In this document: positions 32,244-47,058 of the stretch, in pieces
Position numbering within the stretch: position 1 is the stretch's first letter
Layout: every line of letters begins with the position of its first letter
Origin: Nitrosotalea sp.
GTDB lineage: Archaea > Thermoproteota > Nitrososphaeria > Nitrososphaerales > Nitrosopumilaceae
Length of the DNA: 64,000 nucleotides
Direction of reading: 5' to 3'
NCBI GenBank assembly: GCA_023251795.1
Contig: JAHEYD010000003.1
Span: 73,853 to 137,852, forward strand
Notes under the pieces: model-generated
Told to the model about the DNA's origin: nothing
Databases searched by the model: none
What the model saw: the letters and a program-made list of their open reading frames with translations, nothing else
Position numbers and translations under genes: made by a program

Positions 32244-34265
32244 ATGGCAGATAAAGATAACAAAGACATAAAGAACAAGTCAACTGTTCTATCATTGTTG
32301 CACAAGTTCTTTGGTATACGGTTTGGTGAGTCGTTACCCCAAATAGTAAATATACAAAGCGCATCCCCACAACAATTTTCACCGATGGGTTCTGGTGGTT
32401 ATTTCTCAGATTTCGAAGATGAAAGAATAACTAGATACCGAGAATACGATGTTATGGATAATGACTCGTCTGACATAACTATAGCTCTCGATATTTATGC
32501 AGAGGAAGCGACGCAGACTTCTACGGAAAGTGGTAAAGCAGTTTGGGTTACTTCGGAAGACGAAGAAGTAGCACATATGATCGAGCAATTTCTTTCTGAC
32601 ATTGATTTAGAAGAGAGAGTTTATGGTTTGGCAAGACATATTGCCAAGTACGGAGATTTGTTTCTTTTCCCGATTATTGATAACGAACTCGATGAGGAAT
32701 CCTCTCAGTTATTGAATGAAGAAGACAAACCAAGTAACAATCTAAGAAAGTTCAAGAAAAAGAGTGATTCTGAAGATTCTGATGTGGAACCTGATGATGA
32801 GGACGACGAGGATGAGGGTGAGGACGACGAAGAGGGATTATTTGGGAAAAATCGTCTTGGTGTGGATTCGGACGAAACTGGCGAGGATATCGAGCTAGGG
32901 TTTGAAACCGACGATCAGCCTTCTTATACACCGGACCCAAATATACTCTCGGGACACACTATTAGAGATTTCTGGATAGTCCATCCTTCTACGGTGTCAA
33001 TCTCTACAAACCCAAAGAATGGCAAAATTATCGGGTTCAATAGCACATCTATTGGCATGGAAACTTTGATTGGTGATGAAGCTGGAAGAATACCGCCGCA
33101 AAGCATGACTGACAAAGATGAAGAAGGATTCTCACCATGGGATTTTGTCCATTTTAAAATTATAGGATCTGACTTAACTTCGAAATACGGTACTTCGATG
33201 GTCGAATCCGTGCGCCGCAGTTGGCGTACGCTCCAAATGTTAGAGGTATCAGTTGCGTTATGGAGATTAAATAGGGCCGGTTCGCGTTTGCTCTATAAGA
33301 TCGATGTTGGTCAGTCTTCTCCGGACGAAGCTCAAGAAATAGTAAATAACTGGATAAAGACGATCCGCGGTGAAGTTTTCTTAAACGTTACTGACCCGAG
33401 CAGCGAGAATGGCCGTAACACCGGCGACCTTGCTGAATATTTGGACAGATATAAGCCATTTTCACAATTCCACGATATTTACTGGCCCGTAGCTGAAGGA
33501 TCTGATTCGAGTGTTGATGTTCTTACTATGAATGCCGATTTGGCTCATGTTGAAGACATTGAACATTTTAAAAATAAAGTCAGAACAGCCCTTGGTATAC
33601 CGAAGGCATACTTTGACCAAGACATATCAGGGTGGAATGCAAATAAAGCCCTTGCTCAACAAGATATTAGATTCTCAAAGAAGATTGAGCGTCTTCAGAG
33701 AACTCTAATAAAGGGCATCGAAACCCTTTGTTCAGTCTTCCTATTGTACAAGGGTAAAAATGAGTTTTCGTTTACTATCAACATGGAACCGCCTTCCTCA
33801 CTGTCACAATTACAGCGTTTGGAGGTTTTGCAGCAAAAAGTTTCTGTGGCAATAGAATTAGTCGGTGCTGCTGATACTTTCGGATTTGACAGGGACTTGT
33901 GGTCGGTTTGGGTTCTGAAGAATATTGTTGGTATGTCTGAAGACGACATAAAGAAATTCAAGACTAAACCGGCAGAACCGGAGCCGTTGTCCCCTGACAA
34001 CATAGGGGACATACCGCAAATCGATATGAGCCAACCTGACGGAGGAGACAACGAACCTCCTGACAAGAAGAAAGGAAAGGCTGATATTTTACCGATAGGT
34101 GGTCCGGGACAAGATAAAGGATTTAAGAAGAATCAGATGTTAGACCATTTGTCTGATTCTAGAATATCTCGTTTTTCCCCGCGTTCGAAGCCAACTGTGC
34201 TAAAGAAATCTTTTGAAAGAGTAGTTGAGAAGTCGATTGAACGAGAAGGAAGAGACGGGGAGTAA
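32244..34265 (+). CDS. portal protein (with acidic insertion)
   Basis: ALDIYAEEATQ portal motif. Follows TerL. Asp/Glu-rich insertion around aa 170-215. Confidence 0.7.
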   Translation: MADKDNKDIKNKSTVLSLLHKFFGIRFGESLPQIVNIQSASPQQFSPMGSGGYFSDFEDERITRYREYDVMDNDSSDITIALDIYAEEATQTSTESGKAVWVTSEDEEVAHMIEQFLSDIDLEERVYGLARHIAKYGDLFLFPIIDNELDEESSQLLNEEDKPSNNLRKFKKKSDSEDSDVEPDDEDDEDEGEDDEEGLFGKNRLGVDSDETGEDIELGFETDDQPSYTPDPNILSGHTIRDFWIVHPSTVSISTNPKNGKIIGFNSTSIGMETLIGDEAGRIPPQSMTDKDEEGFSPWDFVHFKIIGSDLTSKYGTSMVESVRRSWRTLQMLEVSVALWRLNRAGSRLLYKIDVGQSSPDEAQEIVNNWIKTIRGEVFLNVTDPSSENGRNTGDLAEYLDRYKPFSQFHDIYWPVAEGSDSSVDVLTMNADLAHVEDIEHFKNKVRTALGIPKAYFDQDISGWNANKALAQQDIRFSKKIERLQRTLIKGIETLCSVFLLYKGKNEFSFTINMEPPSSLSQLQRLEVLQQKVSVAIELVGAADTFGFDRDLWSVWVLKNIVGMSEDDIKKFKTKPAEPEPLSPDNIGDIPQIDMSQPDGGDNEPPDKKKGKADILPIGGPGQDKGFKKNQMLDHLSDSRISRFSPRSKPTVLKKSFERVVEKSIEREGRDGE

Positions 34266-35044
34266 TGGATAAGAAAGAGTTTATTGCTTACGCAAAGGAA
34301 TTCATCGAGTTAAGATCCCCGGAACTCGATGGTATTTCACCGAAGACCGTAGAAAGAATAATTTACTCAATATTTGAGTCAATAGTAACAGTTATAGAAC
34401 GTGGTGATGAAGTTAGATTTTCCCCGGTTGGCATATTCTTTCCTAGGATTGTTCAACGTGGCGACGCTTTGGTAGCATCGAAAATAGGATTTGAGTCATT
34501 TTCGGCCATAAACACAAGGCTGTTTGAGAAGTTCAGTAAGTTGCCGATTTTTAGCTCTAAACAATCGACCATAAGAGTATTTGCAGCAAACGGTGCTTTA
34601 AAAGTCACTGATGAAGAGGGGAAGGAATTGTACTCTCTTACCCAAGCAGCGAGAATGGCGAACGTTTCATTGCCTACAGCACATAAGTACAAAGAAAAAT
34701 ATAAAGACAGAATACCAGTAGTAAAAACTCAACAAGGCAATAGGTATTCAGAATCTGCAGTAGAAGTTTTCAAACAGATAAAACTCGAAAACATCCAAAA
34801 CACCAAAGTAAAAAATACGAATTACAACATAAAATTCCCGTCGAACATTGGCGAGTTTTCGTTGTCGGCAATATCGAAAATGACTTCTACTTCTATGCCT
34901 ACTTTGTATAAATACATGAAAAAATACCCTGATATATTAGACCCATATGTTCATCAGATAGATAACGAAAAGAAGTATTCGAGAGAATTTGCGAAGAAAG
35001 TGGTTGACATTAAAAACTCCAACATGTCACAATTCGGACAATGA
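34265..35044 (+). CDS. HU/IHF-like N-terminal domain plus two MerR-like HTH repeats
   Basis: KKEFIAYAKEF...KTVERIIYSIFESIVTVIERGDEVRFSPVGIF is HU-like. Repeats are YSLTQAARMANVSLPTAHKYKEKY and FSLSAISKMTSTSMPTLYKYMKKY. Confidence 0.45.
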   Translation: MDKKEFIAYAKEFIELRSPELDGISPKTVERIIYSIFESIVTVIERGDEVRFSPVGIFFPRIVQRGDALVASKIGFESFSAINTRLFEKFSKLPIFSSKQSTIRVFAANGALKVTDEEGKELYSLTQAARMANVSLPTAHKYKEKYKDRIPVVKTQQGNRYSESAVEVFKQIKLENIQNTKVKNTNYNIKFPSNIGEFSLSAISKMTSTSMPTLYKYMKKYPDILDPYVHQIDNEKKYSREFAKKVVDIKNSNMSQFGQ

Positions 35045-36879
35045 ATTTCAAAGACCTTATAGAAGCCATTTTAAAAGAAACCAACAAATCAGTTGGTAGG
35101 ATAAGGGGTGGTATTCCTGAAATTCCGTCAGAATTATCACAAAAAGGGTATGCTAACCCATCTGTCAAAAAATCAGCGGACCACGGTTTCAAAATCATAA
35201 AAGGAAACTATAGGAAAGCTTTGAGTGATTTGGTTACCGATTACCAAGAAAACAGGTTGGTGCTGCGCAAGTTCAGGGAAAACGCCGAAAAATTAATGAG
35301 ATCGTACTTCGAAAAAGCATACCGATATGGAATGATGATTCAAGCCGGTATATCATCGACCCCCAAGGATTTCCAGTTGAAGCAGTCTCAGTACCAGTGG
35401 ATAGCGAAAGCTGCTGCTGAAGAATACAAATACTTTGAGTCATTAATCAACGATATTAGAACCGGGAACCAGAAAGTACATTTCCTTTCTAGGGTAGATA
35501 GATATGTTGATACTCTGAATTCGATAAAGGACGCTGGAATTGTTGCAGGCACGCCAGTTGAAGGGTATGTAATATTTCGTTGGGAAGTTGACTATGACGC
35601 GGAACATTGCCCCGGTTGCCTATATCTTGCAGAGCATTCACCTTTTACTAGAGAAAATATACCATGTTTGGTCGGGGAAACAAAAATCCATACTTTGGCT
35701 GGTGAATTTACTATAGAAGAATTGTATCGTGGCAAATATCCGTATGAACATATGTTTGTTTGGTCAATAGATGGTGATATGATATTACCATCATTGGTAA
35801 AAGCTGTGGTGTGCAATGGGGAAGAAGAAACGTTAATAGTTACTTTAGATAATGAAGAAAAAATTGAATGTACTCCTGACCATTTATTTATTTTGAAAAA
35901 CGGAAAGGTGAGAAAATCGTCTGAATTATCAGTCGGTGATTCTCTTATGAGATTTGACACTGTAATTGATAGGGATGGATATAGAAAAATATTAAGCAAA
36001 AAAACTAATAGGTGGTTTAGAGCACATTGGTTGGTGGCCAGATATTTCGGTTTATTTGATGGTGTTAAATTTGATGGACAAAGGCCAGTTATACATCATA
36101 TATTATCAGATCAAAAATCAAATAACGACCCGATGAACTTGTTGGCGATGGGAAACGTGGATCACAACAAACTTCATGGTGATCATTTTGTAAAAAATCT
36201 AAGAAATTGGGAGACAGAAAATCCTAATGACCTTTTTGAACTGAGAAGGAATAATGCTAATAGATTCAGGGATTTGTGGTCCAAATTTGACAATAGAATA
36301 ACAAATAACCAGAAATTAAATGCTAAAAAAAGGGCTGAATGGGCTAGAAACAACAGACATTTATTCTCAGAAAAAGCGAAACAGGCATTTGTAAATAATC
36401 CAGGATTGAGAAATATCAGTAGGGAATCCGGGAAAAGAAACTTTAAACACATAGAAAAATTCATAAAATATATAAGTGATGATAAAAAGAAAGAAATATT
36501 AAAGCTACGTATGGAAGGTAATTCGTACAACGAAATATCGAAAATTGTTGGAGTATCTATTGGTGGTGCATGGAAGGTGTGCAAGAACAATTTATCAAAC
36601 CACAAAGTAGTGAGTGTAAAGAAATCTACTAAAAAAATAGTGTATGATCTTATCACTGATGCTGGAAATTTTGCTTTATCAAGTGGTATTTTTATACACA
36701 ATTGTACACCTAGAGACGGTGCTACGCAATGTCTTTATAATTGTAAGTGTGGTCTAACAGTACAGAAAGTAGATAAGAAGACTTACGATTCAATAGTTAG
36801 GTCCTCAATTTCCAAGAAGTCGATGTTGTCACACCTTAATAGGATGAAACAGGCTTCTTTAGGCACGAGGAGAAGATGA
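35041..36879 (+). CDS. Mu F / SPP1 gp7-like head morphogenesis protein interrupted by an intein
   Basis: The exteins join as HCPGCLYLAEHSPFTRENIP|CTPRDGATQCLYNCKCGL (C..C ... NC[KR]C motif). Follows the portal gene. Confidence 0.6.
   Translation: MNFKDLIEAILKETNKSVGRIRGGIPEIPSELSQKGYANPSVKKSADHGFKIIKGNYRKALSDLVTDYQENRLVLRKFRENAEKLMRSYFEKAYRYGMMIQAGISSTPKDFQLKQSQYQWIAKAAAEEYKYFESLINDIRTGNQKVHFLSRVDRYVDTLNSIKDAGIVAGTPVEGYVIFRWEVDYDAEHCPGCLYLAEHSPFTRENIPCLVGETKIHTLAGEFTIEELYRGKYPYEHMFVWSIDGDMILPSLVKAVVCNGEEETLIVTLDNEEKIECTPDHLFILKNGKVRKSSELSVGDSLMRFDTVIDRDGYRKILSKKTNRWFRAHWLVARYFGLFDGVKFDGQRPVIHHILSDQKSNNDPMNLLAMGNVDHNKLHGDHFVKNLRNWETENPNDLFELRRNNANRFRDLWSKFDNRITNNQKLNAKKRAEWARNNRHLFSEKAKQAFVNNPGLRNISRESGKRNFKHIEKFIKYISDDKKKEILKLRMEGNSYNEISKIVGVSIGGAWKVCKNNLSNHKVVSVKKSTKKIVYDLITDAGNFALSSGIFIHNCTPRDGATQCLYNCKCGLTVQKVDKKTYDSIVRSSISKKSMLSHLNRMKQASLGTRRR
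35665..36702 (+). mobile_element. intein (346 aa) carrying an HNH endonuclease and an HTH domain
   Basis: CLVGETKIHT (block A), TPDH (block B), VIHHILSD...NLLAMGNVDHNKLH (HNH), SYNEISKIVGVSIGG (HTH), GIFIHN|C. Confidence 0.8.
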
Positions 36880-36983
36880 TAACAGTTATTTTGTTAGTGT
36901 TGGTGCTTGTCGTATCATTAGCGTCGTATATTGTATGTTCCCTGTCAGAAAAAATCCATTTACGAAAACTACACCATCGTTAA
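36876..36983 (+). CDS. small membrane protein (35 aa)
   Basis: ATGA overlap with the upstream gene. MITVILLVLVLVVSLASYIVCS... Confidence 0.3.
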   Translation: MITVILLVLVLVVSLASYIVCSLSEKIHLRKLHHR

Positions 36984-37164
36984 TATATAGATCGTGTCTT
37001 GTCAGAGAATTCGTAAATGAATTACAACGAAATAGTATTTATGTGGACAATCGCTAGAGGAGACAAATATGACAGATATTTGGGGCTGTAATTCCTCGCG
37101 GTATCATACTCGACAAATTAAAGAACAGTAATTTACCCGGTCCGTTTCTCCGGGTGTAGTATAC

Positions 37165-37194
37165 TTGACAGATTATATACCTGTGTGTTATGAT
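37165..37194 (+). promoter_or_regulatory. sigma70-type promoter heading the RNA island
   Basis: TTGACA 37165-37170, 18 nt, TATGAT 37189-37194. No RBS or ORF start follows. Confidence 0.6.
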
Positions 37195-37199
37195 TCGTC

Positions 37200-38387
37200 T
37201 GTAGTTGATGGTTCATTGACAATTGGAATCCGAATGGACAGTCAATAAAATGACTCTCCTGTTCAATAATGAGTTAGTGGTGTGGTTGGTCTACCCCGCC
37301 CGAAGAGGGAAGACCTTTTCCCCTTTAATGGGGGCCAAGATGATAAGGGCTAATAATGGCGGAGGGTTGTCGGACACCGCTAAAATAAGCCGCCCGCCGA
37401 CACGGGAAACTGCCGCCTAATATATAGATTTTTTGCGACAGGTCTTGACCCCCGTTAAAGGGGAAACGGAAAAGTTGTGGTTTTGATGCTTTGCGGTGAA
37501 GCTTCGGAGGTCGCTAAAACCTCGCGTTGATATCCGCAAAGTTGGAGTCGCAAAGATCCAAAGGGTGAAGCCGTAATATACACGGTGGACAATGGGTGAA
37601 TTTCTTTACGGCGAAATGGAGCGGGAAGTATTACCCATGCAATCCACGACCCCTTGAATTTGCTGGAAGGGGAACCCACAACCGTTGTCGCGGGGAGCGC
37701 TAGTGCGCGGGATGGCCTCATAAGCCATGCCTTGGCGGGTGCGAATCCCGTCCCCGCAACCAAGCTTTGGACCATGAGCGGGCCGTGGGGTGGCGAATGT
37801 CACTGCGGCATTAAGCTAGACAAAATAACCTTTCTGTCAGGGGAGGAATAGACAAATCTAGTGGCTCGACTGACATTGAGAATCGCGAGTGGTCCAATCG
37901 TTTTGTAGTACCCGTTCTAGGAAGACGCTTTGCGACTTCCAAGTTGGCGTTAATGAGAATGCGCCCGGAACGGTTATTGACCCGAGATAAGATCAGGGTC
38001 AAATCCGGAACACTCTTGTGTTCCTATCGTGTGCGGCCTTTCGTCGTTGAGCCGATAATCAACGACTGAAAATTTCGATTCTGTCGAAGAACGCGACCTA
38101 CGTTAGCTAGGGTCCGAGAAGATACTTGAGAAGTCCTGTTGCTTAGGCTTCGTGGGGCGAGCCTTAAGGGACCCCTGTAATTCCCAGCCCCCTAATTTTC
38201 GGAGTCCGGCCCCGAGTTGTTCTGATCAAACAACGAATCTTCCACTTCCTAACGAGGATTCCCTCTAGGTTGTAAGAAAGAAGCCGGGGATTTGCTGAGG
38301 AATCTATCTGGTGGTGGAAGCTGACTGATTTGAACCTATTGTTTACTGGTTGTATTAGCTGGAATTGGTTCAAGTATAGAAATTAGT
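37200..38387 (+). ncRNA. large ORF-free, helix-dense RNA locus A (unclassified; GOLLD/ROOL-class candidate)
   Basis: Only short ORFs occur, overlapping in several frames and on both strands, with no RBS. Many nested helices, for example 37489-96/37534-41, 37507-11/37519-23, 37996-38002 with 37977-83, 38007-13/38018-24 and 38043-50/38059-66. Pseudoknot between 37570-76/37606-12 and 37592-97/37633-38. Confidence 0.55.
37690..37762 (+). ncRNA. tRNA-like element (CAT anticodon loop) embedded in locus A
   Basis: Acceptor GCGGGGA/TCCCCGC (7 bp). Anticodon arm ATGGC-CTCATAA-GCCAT. T-arm CGGG-TGCGAAT-CCCG, then AACCA. The D region is a non-canonical GCGC-TAGT-GCGC hairpin. Confidence 0.45.
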
Positions 38388-38867
38388 ATGAACAATTGCG
38401 CGAATTGCGGTAACCAGCTAGCGAAATATCAAATGAAATTTTGCTCTATTAAATGTTCTGTGTCTTACTCTAATAGAACAAGAGTAAGGCCACATCAGAA
38501 TCAGTTAAAAATTAGGTTATGTAAGAAATGCAAATCCGATATAAATAGACGAGATTGGAAAGACAACCGGTTTTTGTGCGAAGAATGTTCTGATAAGTCA
38601 AAAACTGATCTGTACCGAATTGGTGAGTTGAAAGATTTTAAAAGAGTAATAAGTGAGAATGCTAGAAGGGTATATTACAAATCAAATAAACCAAAACATT
38701 GTGTAGTTTGCGGGTATGATAAACATTTTGACGTTTGCCACGTAAAAGCAATAAAAGAATTCCCACCGAATGCTGTTGTTTCAGAAGTAAACTGCATAGA
38801 CAACCTAGTAGCGTTATGTAAAAATCATCATTGGGAATTCGATAGCGGGTTGATTACGCTGGGGTAA
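38388..38867 (+). CDS. HNH homing endonuclease
   Basis: CVVCGYDKHFDVCHVKAI...NLVALCKNHHWEFD. The stop TAA lies inside the 5' end of the next tRNA. Confidence 0.8.
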   Translation: MNNCANCGNQLAKYQMKFCSIKCSVSYSNRTRVRPHQNQLKIRLCKKCKSDINRRDWKDNRFLCEECSDKSKTDLYRIGELKDFKRVISENARRVYYKSNKPKHCVVCGYDKHFDVCHVKAIKEFPPNAVVSEVNCIDNLVALCKNHHWEFDSGLITLG

Positions 38868-38943
38868 CACTCTGGGAGTGTAACCGGCTGTTAACCGGTC
38901 TAGGGAAACCTTAAGTTTGGTTCGATTCCAAACCTCAGCGCCA
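38858..38943 (+). tRNA. tRNA with anticodon GTT (Asn) on a class II body (16-nt variable arm)
   Basis: Fold: GCTGGGG TA ACAC-TCTGGGA-GTGT A ACCGG-CTGTTAA-CCGGT CTAGGGAAACCTTAAG TTTGG-TTCGATT-CCAAA CCTCAGC G CCA. Confidence 0.55.
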
Positions 38944-39011
38944 TTTAAATTTAAACAAACGAAGTCCAACCCCGCAATTAGACCTAGCGGGAGAAACGAG
39001 GAACAGATATT

Positions 39012-39087
39012 GCCCCTGTCGTCTAAAGGTTCAGGATGAGAGTCTTTCAAGCTCACGATCCGGGTTCGAGTCCCGGCGGGGGTACCA
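39012..39087 (+). tRNA. tRNA-Glu(TTC)
   Basis: Collinear with E. coli tRNA-Glu. Loop CTTTCAA. T-arm CCGGG-TTCGAGT-CCCGG. Acceptor GCCCCTG/CGGGGGT. Encoded CCA. Confidence 0.8.
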
Positions 39088-39721
39088 GAATTGGTTGGCA
39101 GTCCAATGAAACAAAACTGCCTAGGCGCGTTCTAAATTCCGAGTCTGACGAACGGCGAAGATAATGACTTGGGGATCGCTCGCTAGTTCATAGGAGCAAC
39201 CTTCTGCCAGTAAGCGTTGCTGATATAGCGAGAGACTGGTTTCGATGGTCGTGGACTTAGCCACGTTAAATAGGGCGATAGGCTAAGTGCGGATTTCGCG
39301 TCAGGTCGTTCGTACCGTGTTTGGAGACTTCCCTCCTACTTCAAACACGCGGGGAGACACCGGATGAAGGGCGGGCACTCCGATGAGTCTCTTAAATCAA
39401 TCGCACCGCTGACGCGATTTCGAGCCGCTAGGAAAGGCTTCTGGTTTGGTCACCGGCTGTCCGTGCCACACTTTAGTGCCCCTTGTAAAGGGCCGAGAAC
39501 TGACCCTTCTTATTGTTGTGGAACCTAGCAATCTTCTCCGTGCTTCTAAAACAACCCGGCACGGCGTCGGAAATTTGAGGGTTGCGATCCTAGGAGTGCA
39601 GGGGGGTTTCCGAAATGCATCGGTGCAATACGCGTGAGTACGTCAGACCAATGAACACTGACGAGGCAGGCGAATGGTCGCTGGCGAAGCGCGTTCCCCA
39701 AATTTCGCGAAAGATATAAAG
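39088..39721 (+). ncRNA. ORF-free helix-dense RNA locus B (unclassified)
   Basis: About 630 nt between tRNA-Glu and the next HNH gene with no credible ORF. Helices include 39097-102/39116-121, 39179-85/39226-32 enclosing 39196-200/39216-220, and a 10-bp helix 39316-25/39340-49. Confidence 0.5.
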
Positions 39722-40063
39722 ATGCCATTCAAAAATAAAAAACAAAAAGCCGAATACATGGCTGAATATAGAAAGCGAATGACCGAAGAGCAGAAGCGAA
39801 AAGCTTCTGCCAGAGTAGAAGATAGGAAAAGAGAGATTGCGGAATGGTTACAAGATTTAAAGCTGTCTTTGGCATGTGAGGAATGTGGTGAGAGCCATCC
39901 GGCTTGTTTGGATTTTCACCACACTGACCCATCAGAAAAAGAAGTGGCAATATCTAGGATAAGGTTAAAAGGTTGGTCAACAAAAAGAATAATGAAAGAG
40001 ATAAAGAAGTGCAGAGTTTTGTGTGCAAATTGCCACAGGAAATTGCATTATGTGGCCGGTTAG
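39722..40063 (+). CDS. HNH homing endonuclease (paralog family)
   Basis: CEECGE...LDFHHTDP...CRVLCANCHRKLH. The stop TAG lies at positions 8-10 of the next tRNA. Confidence 0.8.
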   Translation: MPFKNKKQKAEYMAEYRKRMTEEQKRKASARVEDRKREIAEWLQDLKLSLACEECGESHPACLDFHHTDPSEKEVAISRIRLKGWSTKRIMKEIKKCRVLCANCHRKLHYVAG

Positions 40064-40128
40064 TGAAACGGTTATCCCATCTGGCTTACATCCAGAAATT
40101 AGAGGTTCGATTCCTCTACCGGCTACCA
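40054..40128 (+). tRNA. tRNA-Val(TAC)
   Basis: Acceptor GGCCGGT/ACCGGCT. Arm TCTGG-CTTACAT-CCAGA. T-arm AGAGG-TTCGATT-CCTCT. A CCA. Confidence 0.8.
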
Positions 40129-40148
40129 GTCCTTTCTTTCGCACCAAC

Positions 40149-40222
40149 GGGCGGTTAGTTAAACGGGATAACATTGGCTTTGCAAGCCAAGATTGAGAGT
40201 TCGATTCTCTCACTGTCCACCA
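40149..40222 (+). tRNA. tRNA-Ala(TGC)
   Basis: Acceptor GGGCGGT/ACTGTCC with G3:U70. D arm GTTA/TAAC. Arm TTGGC-TTTGCAA-GCCAA. T-arm GAGAG-TTCGATT-CTCTC. Confidence 0.85.
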
Positions 40223-40401
40223 GAGATAAATTTACACCCCCAATTACCTGATGTTGAGATCAGGGAAAACGACCGTAGGGGCGGAAAGCAGGTGTGCTAC
40301 GGCCTCAGTCGCGGCGATTTGCGAGTGGCTGGCCCGTCGAAGGGGACTTTCCGGGGGGTGTTTTCAGGCTTCGCAGCAAAAACGATCAAACGAAGGAAAA
40401 T

Positions 40402-40475
40402 TCCCCTGTCGTTTAACGGTAAGACCCTCGCCTTTGGAGCGAGTTATGTTCGTTCGATTCGAACCGGGGGTGCCA
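40402..40475 (+). tRNA. tRNA-Gln(TTG)
   Basis: U1:U72 mismatch and G73. Arm CTCGC-CTTTGGA-GCGAG. T-arm GTTCG-TTCGATT-CGAAC. Confidence 0.8.
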
Positions 40476-40496
40476 AAATACGTAGCCAAGTTTGTT

Positions 40497-40569
40497 GTGA
40501 CGGTAGTTTAATCGGTTAAAACTCTCCCTTGTGACGGGAGCGATGTGGTTCGACTCCACCCGTCACCCA
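40497..40569 (+). tRNA. tRNA-His(GTG)
   Basis: Acceptor GTGACGG/CCGTCAC. D arm GTTT/AAAC. Arm CTCCC-TTGTGAC-GGGAG. T-loop TTCGACT with a short stem. The 3' end and the -1 position are ambiguous. Confidence 0.6.
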
Positions 40570-40748
40570 TACTACATATGGGAATGTGTGTCGGAAGCTT
40601 TTCTTTGAAACAGGGAAATCGATAACTCAAAGGCGTGAACAATTCAGGGTCTTTGACGGGGCCTGAGAAAAATAACGCGCCGGGCGTCAACTCGGAAGCG
40701 CCAATGTTGAATTGGCGCATCGGTTTCCCTATTTGAGAGAACAGAATT

Positions 40749-40823
40749 CGGGATGTAAGCCAATGGTAGACGGCGCGCTTTGGGGGCGCGAAGCTGGAGG
40801 TTCGACTCCTCTCATCCCGACCA
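40749..40823 (+). tRNA. tRNA-Pro(TGG)
   Basis: Acceptor CGGGATG/CATCCCG. Arm CGCGC-TTTGGGG-GCGCG. T-arm GGAGG-TTCGACT-CCTCT. Weak D stem. Confidence 0.7.
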
Positions 40824-40824
40824 T

Positions 40825-40901
40825 GACCCCTTAGCTCAATCGGATAGAGCTATTGCCTTCTAAGCAATGGGTTGGGGGTTCGATTCCCTCAGGGGTCGCC
40901 A
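40825..40901 (+). tRNA. tRNA-Arg(TCT)
   Basis: Acceptor GACCCCT/AGGGGTC. D arm GCTC/GAGC. Arm ATTGC-CTTCTAA-GCAAT. Confidence 0.85.
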
Positions 40902-40909
40902 AAATTCTT

Positions 40910-40984
40910 GCCGCATAAGCATTAGTGGTGATGCAGTAGTTTTGTAAACTACAGAACAGGGTCCGACTCCTTGATGCGGCTCCA
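40910..40984 (+). tRNA. tRNA-Thr(TGT)
   Basis: Acceptor GCCGCAT/ATGCGGC. D arm GCAT/ATGC. Arm GTAGT-TTTGTAA-ACTAC. T-loop TCCGACT (C at position 55). Confidence 0.8.
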
Positions 40985-40989
40985 AATAC

Positions 40990-41019
40990 TTGACAGGGTA
41001 TTCCCTCGTATGATATACT
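40990..41019 (+). promoter_or_regulatory. phage promoter family copy
   Basis: TTGACA 40990-95, N18 ending in TATGA, TATACT 41014-19, leader TCTTTTATTGGGAGGGAGGAACGAAATG. Confidence 0.7.
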
Positions 41020-41044
41020 TCTTTTATTGGGAGGGAGGAACGAA

Positions 41045-41311
41045 ATGGAAAATTGGGACCAGATCGGATGCTACGGGGCGACGGAAGACGATGTTATCAG
41101 CGCTCTCCGGTCCGCCGTCAAAGTTCAGTTCGTTCGTAATCCTGAGATTCCCGGTGAACCGTTGGATGCGGTTGCTCTTCGTAAGGTTGTCGCTTCTCTC
41201 CTCAGTGATGTTCAGGAAATGATCGAGCGCGGTCTGAATGGGCAGGCCCGGAAGACCCTGAACGTCGCCAAACTGGCTCTGTTTGAGCCCAACCGAATCA
41301 TTGGAGACTGA
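41045..41311 (+). CDS. hypothetical protein
   Basis: The ATG follows the conserved leader. Visibly GC-richer codons. Confidence 0.55.
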   Translation: MENWDQIGCYGATEDDVISALRSAVKVQFVRNPEIPGEPLDAVALRKVVASLLSDVQEMIERGLNGQARKTLNVAKLALFEPNRIIGD

Positions 41312-41313
41312 CC

Positions 41314-41463
41314 ATGTGTTGCGACTTCTGCGGAAACGAAGTTGTTGACCTTGCTCTCGACCGTCCCACTAGCCTCTGTTCCTATGAGTGCGCGAACGAG
41401 GCTTTTGATATGTCGCTTCCTGTTGAAGATCCTGACGAATATCTTAGCTACGAGGAGCGGTAA
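41314..41463 (+). CDS. small Cys-rich protein (49 aa)
   Basis: GGAGA RBS. MCCDFCGNEV...CSYEC. Confidence 0.35.
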   Translation: MCCDFCGNEVVDLALDRPTSLCSYECANEAFDMSLPVEDPDEYLSYEER

Positions 41464-41464
41464 A

Positions 41465-41587
41465 ATGAGACTCGTTCTAAAGCGACCGATTCGACCGTGG
41501 CGGATGGTTCTCCGGTATTGGTTCCCGAGGCGACTTACTTGCGATTGGAGCCCGAGAGTTCATGCATGGCTTTGGTGGAATTTCTAG
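41465..41587 (+). CDS. small Arg/Trp-rich ORF (40 aa)
   Basis: GAGGAG RBS 8 nt upstream. Composition is unusual. Confidence 0.25.
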   Translation: MRLVLKRPIRPWRMVLRYWFPRRLTCDWSPRVHAWLWWNF

Positions 41588-41596
41588 GAGATAGAA

Positions 41597-41998
41597 ATGA
41601 GAGTCTGTGAGGATTGTGGGGCCGATAGATCTGGCGCGATTAACCCGAAGACCGGGGACAATCTGACTTGCTATTGCGGTGGAAAGGTCGTCCGCAAGCC
41701 TTCTGTTGGTTCTCCGCTGATCGTGATTGTTAACGAGGATAACTGCATCATCGGGGTCGATGTTAATAGCGGCGGATACCCTTGGCTTCCTTCTCATCCG
41801 AGTGGATGGAAATTCTTCGCTACTATTGAAGATGCGGTAACGTACAGAGACACTTTTAAGCATGACACCCCGAATGCAACTGGTGATCCTAGGAAGTGGA
41901 GGGTGGTTTATTTCCGTTGGGAAATCGATTTTATCCCCCCGGTGTTTTTTGGTGGGTCTGCTCTTACTGACTTTCTTAAACCACAGGTGGCTCGATAG
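41597..41998 (+). CDS. hypothetical protein (N-terminal Zn-ribbon)
   Basis: AGGAG RBS. The last 18 nt overlap tRNA-Ile(TAT), and the stop TAG is in its D loop. Confidence 0.55.
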   Translation: MRVCEDCGADRSGAINPKTGDNLTCYCGGKVVRKPSVGSPLIVIVNEDNCIIGVDVNSGGYPWLPSHPSGWKFFATIEDAVTYRDTFKHDTPNATGDPRKWRVVYFRWEIDFIPPVFFGGSALTDFLKPQVAR

Positions 41999-42057
41999 GT
42001 AAAGGCGCTCGTCTTATAAGCGAGTATACGTAGGTTCAAATCCTACCCTGTGGACCA
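41981..42057 (+). tRNA. tRNA-Ile(TAT)
   Basis: Acceptor CCACAGG/CCTGTGG. Arm CTCGT-CTTATAA-GCGAG. T-arm GTAGG-TTCAAAT-CCTAC. Confidence 0.7.
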
Positions 42058-42059
42058 AA

Positions 42060-42136
42060 GCCGTGGTAGCCCAATTGGTAGAGGCGGCAGACTTAAAATC
42101 TGCAAAGTGTGGGTCCGACTCCCACTCACGGCACCA
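42060..42136 (+). tRNA. class I-shaped tRNA with anticodon TAA (Leu codons)
   Basis: Acceptor GCCGTGG/TCACGGC. Arm GCAGA-CTTAAAA-TCTGC. 5-nt variable loop AAAGT. T-arm GTGGG-TCCGACT-CCCAC. A73. Confidence 0.6.
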
Positions 42137-42153
42137 ATAGAAAGGATGCTGAA

Positions 42154-42450
42154 ATGTTCTTCTCTAACGAAACTAAGCACAAGATCGAAAATTGGTTCAA
42201 AGAGAAAGTATTTCATGGAAATGATTTTGATGGTTGGTGGTGTGATTATTCCAATTCCAAATCTTCTTTCGATGTTTCCGGCAATAAGTTTTCGTTTAAA
42301 CTTTCTTGGCTTCTTGAATTGAAAGATATTTCCCGCGTTGACGATATTGACGTAGGAGATTTTTCTCATTCGGAAGGAAACTGCCCGACTTGTGATTTTG
42401 GGTCGAAAGATTCGGTAACTTTTTACTTTTACAAGAATTCGCCCCTTTAG
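42154..42450 (+). CDS. hypothetical protein
   Basis: Internal ATG after AAAGGA. The stop TAG lies in positions 8-10 of the next tRNA. Confidence 0.45.
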   Translation: MFFSNETKHKIENWFKEKVFHGNDFDGWWCDYSNSKSSFDVSGNKFSFKLSWLLELKDISRVDDIDVGDFSHSEGNCPTCDFGSKDSVTFYFYKNSPL

Positions 42451-42514
42451 TTCAATGGTAGAACTGCTGGCCTTTAACCAGCGTATGGGGGTTCGATTCC
42501 CTCAGGGGGTACCA
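42441..42514 (+). tRNA. tRNA-Lys(TTT) with C at position 33
   Basis: Acceptor GCCCCTT/AGGGGGT. D arm GTTC/GAAC. Arm GCTGG-CCTTTAA-CCAGC. T-arm GGGGG-TTCGATT-CCCTC. Confidence 0.7.
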
Positions 42515-42684
42515 AATTTTGATCTCTTAGGTTAAACGGTCTGTTGACCCACAGTTGGAGTCGAGAGATCAACCGGTGCTCGAATCCGTTCCAACATCGA
42601 GATTTGGGTTATCTAAGACCCTTGATCGTGAGATCGAAAAGATTAGACGGTTAGCGGGTGGACCGAGAACACCCGCATGACTTT

Positions 42685-42761
42685 GGGCTTGTAGCTCAGT
42701 TGGTTAGAGCACACGGCTGATAACCGTGAGATCGGTGGTTCAAATCCACCTGAGCCCACCA
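42685..42761 (+). tRNA. tRNA-Ile(GAT)
   Basis: GGGCTTG TA GCTC-AGTTGGTTA-GAGC A CACGG-CTGATAA-CCGTG ... GGTGG-TTCAAAT-CCACC. Confidence 0.9.
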
Positions 42762-42926
42762 AATATCCTGATGGGGTGTGGTAGCACTCGGTTGCGGAGC
42801 GGTGGAATCTTCGTGGCTCATAGGTTTGCTTGACCTACCAGAAAAGAGCAAACTGCCAAATGTGAAGAAAGTCGGAGCGGGGGTGGGGAATCCCGCCATC
42901 AGGAGTCTGAGGGAAGGAAATCTAGT

Positions 42927-43349
42927 ATGGCTATAAACGAGTTTTTTGGTGAAGAAGATCAAGAATTCTACCGAGAAGTAGCGGAAACCGAGTGTAAAAA
43001 GTTCTTGCAGCAAAGAGGATGGTCAGTAGGGAAAGCCGACCCAAAATCTAGATTTGACTTGTTTGCTACTAAGGACAATAGGTTTGTTAAATTTCAAGTT
43101 AAAAGTACGAAAGTCATTAAAAGTGGGAATCCAGAGTTTAGGACCGGGAAAGTTACGTATAATAGCAAAATCATAAAAAGAACAAAGTATGAAGAAGGTG
43201 ATTTTGACTTTTGGTTCTTCTATTGTGGGGTCACGGGGGAAAGTTGGGTAGTCCCTTATCGCGAGTTACGATCCGGTTCTGCTACTAGAATGAACAAAAA
43301 ATTTGAAAAATGGAGGGTGACGCGTACAGTGGGTAGGCCGTCGCCTTGA
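42927..43349 (+). CDS. PD-(D/E)XK nuclease (I-Ssp6803I-like free-standing endonuclease candidate)
   Basis: FDLFATKDNRFVKFQVKS (D...QVK motif). About 130 aa. The 3' end reads into tRNA-Ser, and the stop TGA is its anticodon. Confidence 0.5.
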   Translation: MAINEFFGEEDQEFYREVAETECKKFLQQRGWSVGKADPKSRFDLFATKDNRFVKFQVKSTKVIKSGNPEFRTGKVTYNSKIIKRTKYEEGDFDFWFFYCGVTGESWVVPYRELRSGSATRMNKKFEKWRVTRTVGRPSP

Positions 43350-43401
43350 AAGCGAATGGAACCTGAAAGGGTTTGGGGTTCGAGTCCTCCGCCCTCCGCC
43401 A
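43312..43401 (+). tRNA. tRNA-Ser(TGA)
   Basis: Acceptor GGAGGGT/GCCCTCC. Loop CTTGAAA. Long variable arm. T-loop TTCGAGT. G73 and CCA. Confidence 0.8.
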
Positions 43402-43418
43402 TTTTTTGACGTAGTTAC

Positions 43419-43554
43419 GGAAGGGAAGGTAGGTGGCTTGCCGGATACCCTGCTAAGGTATTGCGCTCAGAAATGGGCGTCGAGGGTTCGACACCCTAAA
43501 CCAGACGACCGGTGCGCACCATCGGTTGGGGATCGATACCTCTTCCTTCCTCCA
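43419..43554 (+). pseudogene. tRNA-Ser(GCT)-like gene with about 45 nt inserted between T-arm and 3' acceptor strand
   Basis: 5' acceptor GGAAGGG (43419-25). Arm ATACC-CTGCTAA-GGTAT. Variable hairpin present. T-arm AGGG-TTCGACA-CCCT ends at 43497. The matching 3' strand TCCTTCC plus T CCA appears only at 43544-54. Confidence 0.4.
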
Positions 43555-43562
43555 AATTTTAT

Positions 43563-43650
43563 GGAAGGACCCCCAATGGTGAGGGAAGCGCATTGCTAAT
43601 GCGTGGCTCGTGCATACGGGTTGAAGGTTCGAATCCTTCTCTTTCCGCCA
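43563..43650 (+). tRNA. tRNA-Ser(GCT)
   Basis: Acceptor GGAAGGA/TCTTTCC. 3-bp D stem. Arm GCGCA-TTGCTAA-TGCGT. Long variable arm. T-arm GAAGG-TTCGAAT-CCTTC. Confidence 0.8.
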
Positions 43651-43697
43651 GAAATAGCTCTCTTTTTTGCTTGGTTGTTTTGGTTGGGGTACTCTAT

Positions 43698-43895
43698 ATG
43701 GAACCAACCAAAAAAGAGAATGCCGATAGATTGGCTCAGTTCGCTAGTTCTATACTGTTCGCTTCTTTGCTGTTTCACAGAAGAGCATGTTTTGATTCTA
43801 ACAACTGCAAAGAAGAAAATTGTATGGTGACCAACACTCTGAATCTAGCGGAAAAATTCCTAGAAGAGTTTAATAATAGAATAAGACCGTGGTAA
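43698..43895 (+). CDS. hypothetical small protein
   Basis: Internal ATG of ORF 43512..43895, downstream of the tRNA. No clear RBS. Confidence 0.3.
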   Translation: MEPTKKENADRLAQFASSILFASLLFHRRACFDSNNCKEENCMVTNTLNLAEKFLEEFNNRIRPW

Positions 43896-43896
43896 C

Positions 43897-43982
43897 GGGA
43901 GTTTATACCGTTAAAGAGGCGGGATTGACTGTAGATCAATCGTCTTTGTGCTCGGTAGGCGCGATACCTACAACTCCCACCA
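43897..43982 (+). tRNA. tRNA-Tyr(GTA), class II, atypical T-loop
   Basis: Acceptor GGGAGTT/AACTCCC. Arm ATTGA-CTGTAGA-TCAAT. T-arm GTAGG-CGCGATA-CCTAC. Confidence 0.55.
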
Positions 43983-43983
43983 T

Positions 43984-44057
43984 GCTCCCTTAGCTTAATG
44001 GTAAAGCTACCGGCTCTTAATCGGTTGATGTGGGTTCGATTCCCTCAGGGAGTACCA
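43984..44057 (+). tRNA. tRNA-Lys(CTT)
   Basis: Acceptor GCTCCCT/AGGGAGT. D arm GCTT/AAGC. Arm ACCGG-CTCTTAA-TCGGT. Confidence 0.85.
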
Positions 44058-44062
44058 ATCCC

Positions 44063-44139
44063 GTCCCTATAGCACAAATGGATAATGCGCGGCTCTCCTA
44101 AGGCCGATATTCAAGGTTCGATTCCTTGTGGGGACACCA
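44063..44139 (+). tRNA. tRNA-Arg(CCT)
   Basis: Acceptor GTCCCTA/TGGGGAC. Arm CGGCT-CTCCTAA-GGCCG. T-arm CAAGG-TTCGATT-CCTTG. Confidence 0.8.
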
Positions 44140-44154
44140 TTTTTGGAGAAAGTA

Positions 44155-44532
44155 ATGTACAAAGACCCAAATGATGAAAGAGCAAAAGCATCTAGGAGAA
44201 AACATTATAGTAAGAACAAGAAATCATATTACCAACGTAACGAAATCAAAAGACACCAATTACGAGAGTATTTAAGAGAAATAAAAAATAAACCATGTTT
44301 AGACTGTGGAATTCAATACCCGTTTTATGTTATGGAATTTGATCATCGTGATCCGAATGCTAAACTGCGCGGAGTCACTAAATTAGTGAATAACTGCAAC
44401 ATGAAAAAACTAACAGAAGAAATAGAAAAGTGTGATGTTGTTTGCGCTAATTGTCACAGAATAAGAACATGGAATAAAGAAACGGGAGTTTTGAAGTATA
44501 GGGACGGGATTAGGGTAATAGTGGATAGCTAA
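44155..44532 (+). CDS. HNH homing endonuclease (paralog family)
   Basis: GGAG RBS. CLDCG...MEFDHRDP...CDVVCANCHRIRT. The stop lies inside the next tRNA-like gene. Confidence 0.8.
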   Translation: MYKDPNDERAKASRRKHYSKNKKSYYQRNEIKRHQLREYLREIKNKPCLDCGIQYPFYVMEFDHRDPNAKLRGVTKLVNNCNMKKLTEEIEKCDVVCANCHRIRTWNKETGVLKYRDGIRVIVDS

Positions 44533-44591
44533 GGTAGCCGGTTGGCCTCCAAAACCATACTGCGTGGGTTCAAATCCTACATCCACTGCCA
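44520..44591 (+). tRNA. tRNA-Trp(CCA)-like (weak stems)
   Basis: Acceptor AGTGGAT/ATCCACT. Loop CTCCAAA. T-arm GTGGG-TTCAAAT-CCTAC. The anticodon and D stems have mismatches. Confidence 0.45.
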
Positions 44592-44621
44592 CTCTTACAG
44601 CCCCCGCCAAGTTTAAATTGA

Positions 44622-44697
44622 TGCGAGATAGTTTAAATGGTAAAACGTCAGACTCTGAATCTGCTCGATGAAAGTTCGAATCTTTCTCTCGCTGCCA
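44622..44697 (+). tRNA. tRNA-Gln(CTG)
   Basis: U1:U72 and G73, as in the other Gln. D arm GTTT/AAAC. Loop CTCTGAA. T-arm GAAAG-TTCGAAT-CTTTC. Confidence 0.75.
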
Positions 44698-44698
44698 T

Positions 44699-44773
44699 GG
44701 GGACGAAGCTAAATGATCAGGCAGGAGTCTGCAAAACTCCTAGACGTTGGTTTAATTCCAACCGTCCCCTCCA
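44699..44773 (+). tRNA. tRNA-Cys(GCA)
   Basis: Acceptor GGGGACG/CGTCCCC. Arm GGAGT-CTGCAAA-ACTCC. U73. Confidence 0.8.
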
Positions 44774-44799
44774 TTTTTTGTAGTGAAACAGGAGACCCG

Positions 44800-45141
44800 A
44801 TGAAAAAAATTATAGTGTGTGGGGGTAGGGATCTTCCCGTTACAAGGCAATGGGTCCAGCGCGTGGCCGAAAAATTGAAGGAAATAAAAGCTACGTTAGT
44901 GATATCGGGTTGCGCCCGTGGTGGTGATGCAATTGGAGAGGCTGCCGCTATTAGCATAGGGTTGCCAATCGAAAAGCATCCTGCACAGTGGGATAAATGG
45001 GGAAAACGGGCAGGTTATTTAAGGAATGTCGAAATGCTTGCTTGTTGTGATGGTACACTTTCGCTTCCGGGTGGTAAGGGTACCGAAATGATGAAGAAAA
45101 TCACATTGGAAGCAAAGAAACCCTTGTGGGTATTGGAGTGA
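44800..45141 (+). CDS. SLOG-superfamily protein (DUF2493-like)
   Basis: AGGAGA RBS. KIIVCGGRD...VISGCARGGDAIGE...KWGKRAGYLRN..ML pattern. Confidence 0.6.
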   Translation: MKKIIVCGGRDLPVTRQWVQRVAEKLKEIKATLVISGCARGGDAIGEAAAISIGLPIEKHPAQWDKWGKRAGYLRNVEMLACCDGTLSLPGGKGTEMMKKITLEAKKPLWVLE

Positions 45142-45151
45142 CCGACATATT

Positions 45152-45228
45152 GGCCCTATCTTCTAAAGGCTTAGGATGCGACCCCCTCAAGGTTGCGATG
45201 TTGAGTTCGAATCTCACTAGGGCTACCA
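45152..45228 (+). tRNA. tRNA-Glu(CTC) with C at position 33
   Basis: Acceptor GGCCCTA/TAGGGCT. Glu-type D arm. Arm CGACC-CCCTCAA-GGTTG. T-loop TTCGAAT. Confidence 0.65.
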
Positions 45229-45240
45229 ATAGACGGAGAA

Positions 45241-45495
45241 ATGAAGAGGGAGTGTGTCGATGGTGTTTGGTATAGACAGGAATACGAGCACAGTCCCGAT
45301 TGTAGATGTTCGAAATCCGATAATTGTTGGGTTGTTCCTGAAATAGCGTATAGATATTTTGATACTGCCATGAGAAGTAGGCCAAAAATATCGCCGCAAA
45401 CAGTTATTAAATTCATGTGCAATGACCCAAATTGTACTGCCATAATGTTTGTTTCTAGTAAAATTTTTAAGAATATCCCAAATGTAATAGAATAG
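45241..45495 (+). CDS. small Cys-rich protein
   Basis: GGAG RBS. ORF track. Confidence 0.45.
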   Translation: MKRECVDGVWYRQEYEHSPDCRCSKSDNCWVVPEIAYRYFDTAMRSRPKISPQTVIKFMCNDPNCTAIMFVSSKIFKNIPNVIE

Positions 45496-45500
45496 GATAA

Positions 45501-45516
45501 AGGGGTATAGGGGTAT
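45501..45516 (+). repeat. tandem 8-nt duplication AGGGGTAT x2 at the 5' end of tRNA-Asp
   Basis: Read directly: AGGGGTATAGGGGTATAGCTC. Confidence 0.8.
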
Positions 45517-45583
45517 AGCTCAACGGTAGAGCGCTGGCTTGTCACGCCAGTGGTTGCCGGTTCGAATCCGGTTGCCCCTGCCA
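45509..45583 (+). tRNA. tRNA-Asp(GTC)
   Basis: AGGGGTA TA GCTC-AACGGTA-GAGC G CTGGC-TTGTCAC-GCCAG ... GCCGG-TTCGAAT-CCGGT TGCCCCT G CCA. Confidence 0.9.
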
Positions 45584-45587
45584 TCAA

Positions 45588-46049
45588 ATGAAAAAATGTA
45601 CATATTGTAAATTAGAAAAGCCGAAAACTGAATTCTCGAAAAACGCAACGAGAAAAGATGGGATTCAAAATATCTGTAAAGAGTGTAGCAAAAGAAGATT
45701 GATTGAAGCCCACAAGAAAAGTTACAGTAATAGAAAACATATAATAAAAGAAAACAGAAAAGAAGAGATTGAAAGAAATAAACAGATAGTGGCTGAACAT
45801 AAATTAGGCGGGTGTAAATTTTGTTCGGAGAAAGATCCGGTGACACTTGATTTTCACCACGTTAACCCAAAAGAAAAAGATTTATCAATATCAGTCATAA
45901 TTCATAGGTACACTACAAACAAATTAGTAAAAGAAATAGAAAAATGTATAGTCCTGTGTTCTAACTGTCACAGGAAGCTTCATGCTTATGGCGAAGATGT
46001 GGGTTCAAGTCCCATCGGTACTGCCATGGTGAAGTTAGCTCAACGGTAG
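45588..46049 (+). CDS. HNH homing endonuclease (paralog family); C-terminal tail reads through tRNA-derived sequence
   Basis: The ATG lies 4 nt after the CCA of tRNA-Asp. CKFCSE...LDFHHVNP...CIVLCSNCHRKLH. After about 45990 the frame runs through a tRNA 3' fragment and the next tRNA-like gene. Confidence 0.75.
   Translation: MKKCTYCKLEKPKTEFSKNATRKDGIQNICKECSKRRLIEAHKKSYSNRKHIIKENRKEEIERNKQIVAEHKLGGCKFCSEKDPVTLDFHHVNPKEKDLSISVIIHRYTTNKLVKEIEKCIVLCSNCHRKLHAYGEDVGSSPIGTAMVKLAQR
45999..46026 (+). pseudogene. orphan tRNA 3' fragment (T-arm plus 3' acceptor strand plus CCA)
   Basis: GTGGG-TTCAAGT-CCCAT CGGTACT G CCA. No matching 5' half; the upstream sequence encodes the HNH CxxCH motif. Confidence 0.5.
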
Positions 46050-46108
46050 AGCAGGAAGCGTTCTAATTATTCGCTTGCCGTATGTTGGTTCGAGTCCAAC
46101 ACTTCATC
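46029..46108 (+). tRNA. aberrant tRNA-like gene with 11-nt anticodon loop and no encoded CCA
   Basis: GTGAAGT TA GCTC-AACGGTA-GAGC A, extended stem GGAAGCG/CGCTT(G)CC, loop TTCTAATTATT, T-arm GTTGG-TTCGAGT-CCAAC, ACTTCAT C. Confidence 0.4.
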
Positions 46109-46112
46109 GCTT

Positions 46113-46189
46113 GTTCCCCTAGCTTAACGGACTAGAGCAAAACGCTACGAACGTTTTAGGTACAGGTTCGAATCCTGTGGGGAACTCCA
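46113..46189 (+). tRNA. tRNA-Arg(ACG)
   Basis: Acceptor GTTCCCC/GGGGAAC. Arm AAACG-CTACGAA-CGTTT. T-arm ACAGG-TTCGAAT-CCTGT. Confidence 0.9.
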
Positions 46190-46194
46190 ATTTT

Positions 46195-46643: not shown

Positions 46644-46658
46644 AAAGAAAGGGGTACA

Positions 46659-47054: not shown

Positions 47055-47058
47055 TATC

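Follow-up and report, generated by a model that had tools for sequence, protein, structure and literature searches.

An orphan non-coding region at the head of a phage tRNA island, read as the possible head of the tRNA operon

The window analysed here, a stretch of 64,000 nucleotides (nt), belongs to a phage contig with a T4-like portal gene, and at the head of its 28-tRNA island lies a promoter followed by about 1.2 kb without a gene. A sequence-only reading of the same stretch had proposed that this locus encodes a large structured RNA, either a member of the GOLLD/ROOL class or a new one, and that it occupies the position where capsid genes would be expected. We favour another explanation, to which we give about an even chance of being right, namely that the locus is the non-coding head of the operon of the phage tRNA island and not a giant RNA of a known class. 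According to this explanation, the promoter would start a transcript that has neither a ribosome-binding site nor an open reading frame (ORF) at its beginning and that would carry, in this order, a hairpin-rich leader of ~490 nt, a tRNA(CAU) gene, a spacer of ~625 nt, an HNH gene, tRNA-Asn, tRNA-Glu and the remaining island. All genes around the locus are on the plus strand, and the elements in question are the following.

37165-37194, plus strand: sigma-70-type promoter TTGACA-N18-(TG)-TATGAT, found by promoter scan, matching 11 of 12 consensus positions.
37201-37688, plus strand: 5′ non-coding segment of ~488 nt, from the predicted transcription start to the tRNA-type gene; minimum free energy (MFE) −175.7 kcal/mol, z = −4.7.
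37689-37762, plus strand: divergent initiator-type tRNA(CAU) gene of 74 nt with an encoded CCA, recognised by sequence pattern, folding and family alignment.
37763-38387, plus strand: 3′ non-coding segment of ~625 nt, up to the HNH start codon; z = −2.9.
38388-38867, plus strand: HNH_2 homing-endonuclease-type ORF of 159 amino acids (aa), PF13391, E = 4.5e-10, with no recognisable Shine-Dalgarno sequence.
38858-38943, plus strand: tRNA-Asn(GUU), with which the canonical tRNAs of the island begin, from ARAGORN/Rfam.

The strongest evidence for a non-coding transcript comes from the promoter. A lone match to 11 of 12 consensus positions is unremarkable in 64 kb, and the weight comes from the repetition of the cassette (TTGACA, 18-nt spacer, TG), of which a scan of the whole window found at least 11 copies.

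2657, 37165, 40990, 47837, 49182, 50404, 52578, 60077, 61295 and 63173, plus strand, and 1227, minus strand: copies of the promoter cassette.

The consensus promoter on which the sequence-only reading was built is thus confirmed as a member of a family. The hexamer TTGACA, the 18-nt spacing and the TG are identical across the copies, which have the general form TTGACA-N18-(TG)-TATAAT. In most of the others, as the aligned copies show, a Shine-Dalgarno sequence (commonly GGGAGGAAC) and an ATG come within the next ~10-30 nt, the common leader being TTTCTTACTGAGGGAGGAACGGAA-ATG. Unlike most other copies, the cassette at 37165 has no Shine-Dalgarno sequence and ATG downstream. Because the cassette is present without a Shine-Dalgarno sequence or an ORF, a non-coding transcript is expected to start from it, with the first nucleotide probably near 37201. 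The scan of the plus strand for terminators found no terminator-like site from the promoter to 39892, and therefore read-through into the HNH gene, tRNA-Asn and tRNA-Glu is expected.

The region 36880-38387 is non-coding. Each of its six frames contains 15-30 stops per 502 codons, with TAA, TAG and TGA all present, and the gene caller of the 140.6-kb source contig (ENA ERZ27279937 k141_7097915) placed no gene in it. Its six-frame translations had no match in Pfam at E ≤ 1, and tblastn of the six frames against the window plus ~1 Mb of related loci found no match either. The stop counts, the gene caller and Pfam all agree with the earlier statement that no ORF linked to a ribosome-binding site is found here. 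A recoded gene was rejected because every frame holds all three stop codons, and a decayed gene was rejected because the Pfam and tblastn searches with the six-frame translations were blank. The locus is also richer in GC (0.48-0.56) than the flanking genes (0.31-0.40), as had been noted, but the difference does not hold as a sign of RNA. Since coding genes of the island match the locus (0.51-0.54 in Ku, 52630-53475; 0.57-0.58 in 47100-47550), GC richness is a trait of the island.

Most simply, a tRNA-type gene divides the locus into the leader and the spacer. The sequence of 37689-37762 is CGCGGGG-A-GCGC-UAGU-GCGC-GGG-AUGGC-CUCAUAA-GCCAU-GCCUUG-GCGGG-UGCGAAU-CCCGU-CCCCGCA-A-CCA. Folded alone, it has the cloverleaf as its MFE structure (−38.4 kcal/mol, z = −2.6), with a 7-bp acceptor, anticodon and T arms and a 3′ CCA all present; the D arm is minimal (4-bp stem, 4-nt loop) and the anticodon stem is extended. 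The acceptor CGCGGGG/CCCCGCA contains a C1×A72 mismatch and continues into A73-CCA, the anticodon loop is CUCAUAA and the T loop is UGCGAAU. The C1×A72 mismatch, A73-CCA and the CUCAUAA loop are what we take to be features of bacterial initiator tRNAs, by comparison with E. coli tRNAfMet. The Rfam tRNA model RF00005 (29 bits needed) did not accept the module, and the only score was one of 23.8 bits with the tRNA-Sec model, whose gathering score is 47. Detectors miss it because of the 4-nt D loop, the missing U8 and the G at position 55.

A pattern scan found 37 IMG/VR contigs that share the T arm and the acceptor end of the module. Both elements were contained in the pattern, so the independent agreements are the 5′ acceptor strand, the anticodon loop and the GG-less D loop: the 37 genes are 75-79 nt long, agree with the module in the 5′ acceptor strand, all have CAU as their anticodon and lack GG in the D loop. 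ARAGORN calls this family tRNA-Met, the Rfam tRNA model scores it at 49-59 bits, and its D, anticodon and T stems covary. The module has in common with it the acceptor with the C1×A72-type end and A73-CCA, the CUCAUAA loop and the GGUGCGAAUCC T arm. It differs in lacking U8, in its 4-nt D loop and in the three bases between the D and anticodon stems; moreover, the family members are in compact arrays without long ORF-free flanks, whereas the copy in the window has such flanks. By this alignment, the module is the most divergent member of a family of initiator-type tRNA(CAU) genes that recurs in phages. The tRNA elbow of the family is, as judged from the same genes, altered: the T loop has a G instead of the otherwise universal U55, and the D loop lacks GG. 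Among the 28 tRNAs of the window (27 from ARAGORN plus the tRNA-Cys at 44699-44770) it is the only CAU candidate. The tRNA-like module that had been described as embedded in the locus is therefore real, but it is a gene of a recurrent tRNA(CAU) family and, most simply, not a domain of one RNA. No case of this family linked to GOLLD or ROOL was found in 13 tRNA-array loci.

To assess folding, MFEs were compared with those of dinucleotide-preserving shuffles, 200 of them for each sub-domain. The z-scores of the two segments listed above compare with +1.6 to −2.0 in the coding controls (n = 3) and −0.4 in the next ORF-free spacer (39090-39670). None of the 200 shuffles was as stable as the sub-domains 37317-37466 (z = −5.9), 37767-37898 (−4.8), 37974-38026 (−4.4) and 37905-37973 (−3.0), values that are inflated by the choice of the sub-domain limits from the MFE structure. 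Other parts, 37207-37279, 37341-37442 (z = −0.6), 38102-38175 and 38180-38324, fold no better than shuffles. The main structural features are:

37314-37469, plus strand: long hairpin domain with 27-nt arms that are 89% complementary and three small hairpins inside, from an inverted-repeat search.
37767-37898, 37905-37973, 37977-38002, 38007-38024, 38027-38101 and 38325-38375, plus strand: row of stable hairpin domains in the 3′ segment.

Most of the folding signal of the 5′ segment comes from the single 27-nt inverted repeat of the first of these domains. The helices reported from inspection are present, all eight being perfect Watson-Crick complements at their coordinates; local perfect stems are only ~1.5-2 times as frequent as expected by chance (p ~0.02-0.05). 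The pseudoknot that had been proposed (37570-76/37606-12 interleaved with 37592-97/37633-38) did not hold up, since interleaved stems occur at chance level (3 observed, 2.4 ± 2.1 in shuffles). About 95% of the confident pairs are Watson-Crick, with few G-U pairs, and the predicted hairpins include no GNRA or UNCG tetraloops. The reverse strand folds equally well relative to its own shuffles, and the z-scores show no strand asymmetry. The structure, as modelled, is a chain of unusually stable, simple and mostly independent local hairpins, and no ornate fold is demonstrated. A candidate 19-nt pair, 37537-37555/37928-37946, 79% complementary, would join the 5′ and 3′ segments across the tRNA-type gene.

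If the locus is the head of the operon, its transcript would be processed at the tRNAs. The tRNA-type element would be released at its 5′ end by RNase P and behind its CCA by the 3′ processing of tRNAs. These cuts would free a 5′ RNA of ~490 nt and leave the 3′ segment on the HNH message, where its ~625 nt would be the 5′ untranslated region (UTR) of the Shine-Dalgarno-less HNH gene; the HNH ORF directly abuts this segment. The HNH message would be cut in turn at tRNA-Asn. The hairpins would most likely act in cis, by protecting the precursor or ordering its processing and by keeping translation of the endonuclease gene low, or, alternatively, they would have no selected role. A probable pistol self-cleaving ribozyme 900 nt downstream fits a heavily processed polycistronic RNA, to which it would add another cut. 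In the tRNA cluster of T4, the stable RNAs species 1 and 2 and the homing endonuclease SegB are reportedly co-transcribed and processed with the tRNAs; those two RNAs are said to be ~140 nt long, against 500-600 nt here. Homologues of the HNH_2 protein (31-46% identity) are inside tRNA arrays in seven of eight other phage contigs (L098-L105), with no similar RNA upstream of them, which suggests a homing-endonuclease lineage tied to tRNA islands.

Two details were noted at the junction of the HNH gene with the tRNAs. The HNH ORF and tRNA-Asn overlap by 10 nt, with the stop codon of the ORF inside the 5′ end of the tRNA, and therefore processing by RNase P would strip the stop codon from the message. 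The variable region of tRNA-Asn contains an unusual 13-nt insert.

The known families of large RNAs were searched with cmscan and Rfam 15; the gathering threshold was applied to the whole window, and a permissive E ≤ 10 to stretches of 3.2 kb and 1.25 kb. At the gathering threshold, the window contained tRNAs and one pistol ribozyme and nothing else. At E ≤ 10, no GOLLD, ROOL, group I/II intron, RNase P, tmRNA (transfer-messenger RNA), HEARO or ribozyme was found in 37150-38400, and ARAGORN called no tmRNA. Membership in GOLLD or ROOL thus found no support even at the permissive threshold, and the group I/II intron, RNase P and tmRNA, which had been named as candidates for the same search, fell with it. 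An intron was rejected on two further grounds: the upstream gene, which ends at 36879, is complete compared with its homologues, and the HNH ORF is complete.

The likeness to these families lies in setting and layout. GOLLD and ROOL RNAs occur near phage tRNA islands (PMC12286853, PMC5737381), and the locus heads an island of 28 tRNAs, so it shares their position. GOLLD RNAs combine a variable 5′ part with a conserved 3′ part, with tRNAs sometimes in the linker, and GOLLD env-38 adjoins a Met-tRNA (PMC12286853). The locus shares with GOLLD (RF01998) the phage tRNA-island setting, the very large size and the absence of ORFs, and its halves flank a tRNA(CAU)-type element as the two parts of GOLLD may flank tRNAs. 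It differs in having no covariance-model match, not even to the universally conserved 3′ domain, in its length (~1.19 kb versus ~800 nt) and in showing no GNRA loops, multi-stem junctions, supported pseudoknots or homologue family. ROOL (RF03087) is likewise large, non-coding, of unknown function and found in phages or prophages, often near tRNA islands; the locus has no match to its model, and its pseudoknot is at chance level. Staphylococcus phage K was described as having abundant unclassified long non-coding RNAs (lncRNAs), unlike GOLLD or ROOL, next to its tRNA genes (PMC9241854). They are defined, as the locus is here, by adjacency to tRNA genes and dissimilarity to GOLLD and ROOL, but they are abundantly transcribed, and a search of INPHARED found no sequence similar to the present locus.

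Comparison with related phages placed the locus within an insertion. The nearest portals among 5.8 billion clusters are at most 51% identical. In six related lineages (nine contigs), whose portals are 42-51% identical, gene order is kept through the portal-adjacent pair and closely packed coding genes then follow directly. None of the nine contigs has a tRNA island or a gap after the portal-adjacent genes, and only L036 has two tRNAs, ~9 kb downstream. Because these contigs run on directly and their synteny with the window resumes only at ~54250, 36880-54250 is, on this comparison, a lineage-specific insertion. The earlier placement of the locus where capsid genes would be expected does not hold: the related lineages continue past the portal-adjacent pair without it, and the locus lies inside the insertion. 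The island 36880-54250 contains tRNAs, HNH and PD-(D/E)XK endonucleases, phosphoesterases, a cREC_REC protein, Ku and a ligase.

Homologues of the locus were sought in several collections. Comparison of the whole region and both halves by blastn with INPHARED (sequenced cultured phages), to E = 5, returned only chance matches of 24-29 nt; PLSDB had no match to the locus, and blastn and nhmmer found no homologue in ~1.0 Mb of fetched related and tRNA-array loci. Exact 17-20-mers gave, in IMG/VR and GTDB genomes, either nothing or seed-only matches in unrelated GC-rich DNA, and a single-sequence covariance model of 37767-37898 recovered only itself from 1.1 Mb. Searches of JGI metagenomes and IMG/VR with patterns of tRNA variants matched unrelated Met tRNAs or chance sequences, which were rejected. 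A spurious 62-aa frame of the 5′ part produced no candidates in protein catalogues; for a spurious 84-aa frame of the 3′ part, 1.84 billion representatives yielded two eukaryotic tandem-repeat proteins, which were judged to be chance matches and set aside. Copies from three samples are 100% identical, and no diverged homologue was found.

Several findings weigh against reading the locus as the head of the operon. With a Met-type tRNA between a 5′ and a 3′ domain, the locus is laid out like the GOLLD RNAs that have tRNAs in their linker (PMC12286853). The arrays around the same tRNA type in the 37 other phages are compact, and 1.1 kb of non-coding RNA is much for a phage. Neither ARAGORN nor the Rfam tRNA model accepts the module at 37689-37762, so its processing is not assured. 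Finally, several domains have an excess of stability that junk would not need. Under a competing explanation, which we consider unlikely, the locus would encode a large structured phage RNA of a new class that acts in trans. GOLLD-like in its 5′ domain, covalently linked Met-type tRNA and 3′ domain, this RNA would be abundant during infection and would work as a folded, possibly oligomeric particle. The strong promoter without an ORF agrees with it, as do the domains that none of 200 shuffles equals in stability and the 19-nt complementarity (37537-37555/37928-37946) that joins the halves. The locus heads a tRNA island, as GOLLD and ROOL do, GOLLD can have linker tRNAs and has a member, env-38, beside a Met-tRNA (PMC12286853, PMC5737381), and phage K offers abundant unclassified lncRNAs beside its tRNA genes (PMC9241854). 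Such an RNA is, however, hard to reconcile with the lack of an Rfam match of any kind and of a homologue in INPHARED, PLSDB, the IMG/VR and GTDB seeds, ~1.1 Mb of loci and the protein catalogues, nor does it sit well with a string of simple perfect hairpins that has no GNRA loops, a pseudoknot at chance level and sizeable parts that fold like shuffles. Somewhat more doubtful is the specific proposal that both halves and the Met-type tRNA make up one giant RNA class of ~1.2 kb, analogous to GOLLD, unrelated to it in sequence and with a non-canonical initiator tRNA covalently attached.

It is equally doubtful that the locus is non-functional debris of a recombination-prone island, brought in by the shuffling of homing endonucleases and promoter cassettes and transcribed only through its position between a promoter and tRNAs. 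The absence of the 36880-54250 insertion from the six related lineages (nine contigs), the mosaic island, in which promoter cassettes recur and HNH and PD-(D/E)XK endonuclease genes are found, the orphan status of the locus in every collection searched and a GC content equal to that of neighbouring island genes would all be expected of debris. Yet no remnant of decayed ORFs or tRNAs is present, several domains fold well beyond their composition, and phage genomes seldom keep 1.1 kb of useless DNA. An element acting at the DNA level (a replication origin primed from the promoter, for example, or a site of recombination or packaging), with inverted repeats that form DNA hairpins or cruciforms, would account for the equally strong z-scores of the reverse strand, the perfect Watson-Crick helices with few G-U pairs and the 27-nt inverted repeat, and a promoter without an ORF resembles the origins of T4-type phages. 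We regard it as very improbable: the locus is GC-rich rather than an AT-rich unwinding element, iterons or direct-repeat arrays were not found, and a tRNA-type gene stands in its middle.

If the flanks of the tRNA-type gene were functional RNA, they would be a third type of large RNA by phage tRNA islands, unrelated in sequence to the other two and with a built-in initiator-type tRNA. This would add weight to the view that RNAs like GOLLD and ROOL cooperate with phage tRNAs, and it would provide a new subject for structural work. On the more modest reading as the head of the operon, the locus illustrates how a tRNA operon may be organised, with a cassette promoter, a structured leader, an aberrant initiator tRNA, an endonuclease gene with a 625-nt UTR and a pistol ribozyme. 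A more solid by-product is the recurrent family of phage initiator-type tRNAs with an altered elbow, which could, speculatively, bear on the evasion of host defences that target tRNAs.

The DNA immediately upstream of the promoter contains one further feature:

37133-37151, plus strand: hairpin CCCGG-N9-CCGGG, just 5′ of the promoter, read from the sequence.

This hairpin has no T run and was not called in the terminator scan; the transcription unit upstream may end at it. It comes after a 20-aa ORF with a strong Shine-Dalgarno sequence (37069-37131), and a hydrophobic 35-aa ORF (36876-36983) overlaps the stop codon of the preceding gene, which codes for 612 aa. Some of the other promoter cassettes also have hairpins upstream, and they recall the mobile promoter/stem-loop cassettes of T4-type phages. 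Farther upstream, the portal gene (32244-34265) is followed by a 259-aa gene and then by the 612-aa gene, which bears an intein. In the latter (35041-36879), a conserved protein of ~260 aa is split by an intein at ~35665-36705 (PF14890) with an HNH-like motif, absent from all relatives examined; the MuF label given to this protein had no support in Pfam. The upstream ribonucleotide reductase also bears an intein, with LAGLIDADG.

Downstream of the HNH gene, the pistol match at 39250-39310 lies within the ORF-free spacer 39088-39673 and scores 36.8 bits against a gathering score of 34.5. Its hairpin loop ACUUAGC can pair perfectly with a GCUAAGU farther downstream to form the pseudoknot that a pistol ribozyme needs; most of one model helix is absent, and the 586-nt spacer as a whole gives no folding signal (z about −0.4). 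Farther into the island, the tRNA-Cys(GCA) at 44699-44770 is found by Rfam and missed by ARAGORN, and ARAGORN reports tRNA-Ile genes with the unusual anticodons UAU and AAU (41981-42057 and 46028-46110). A repair-type block at 50441-54247 codes for a calcineurin-like phosphoesterase, a cREC_REC protein (cyclic-phosphate-processing receiver), a second phosphoesterase, Ku and an ATP-dependent DNA/RNA ligase.

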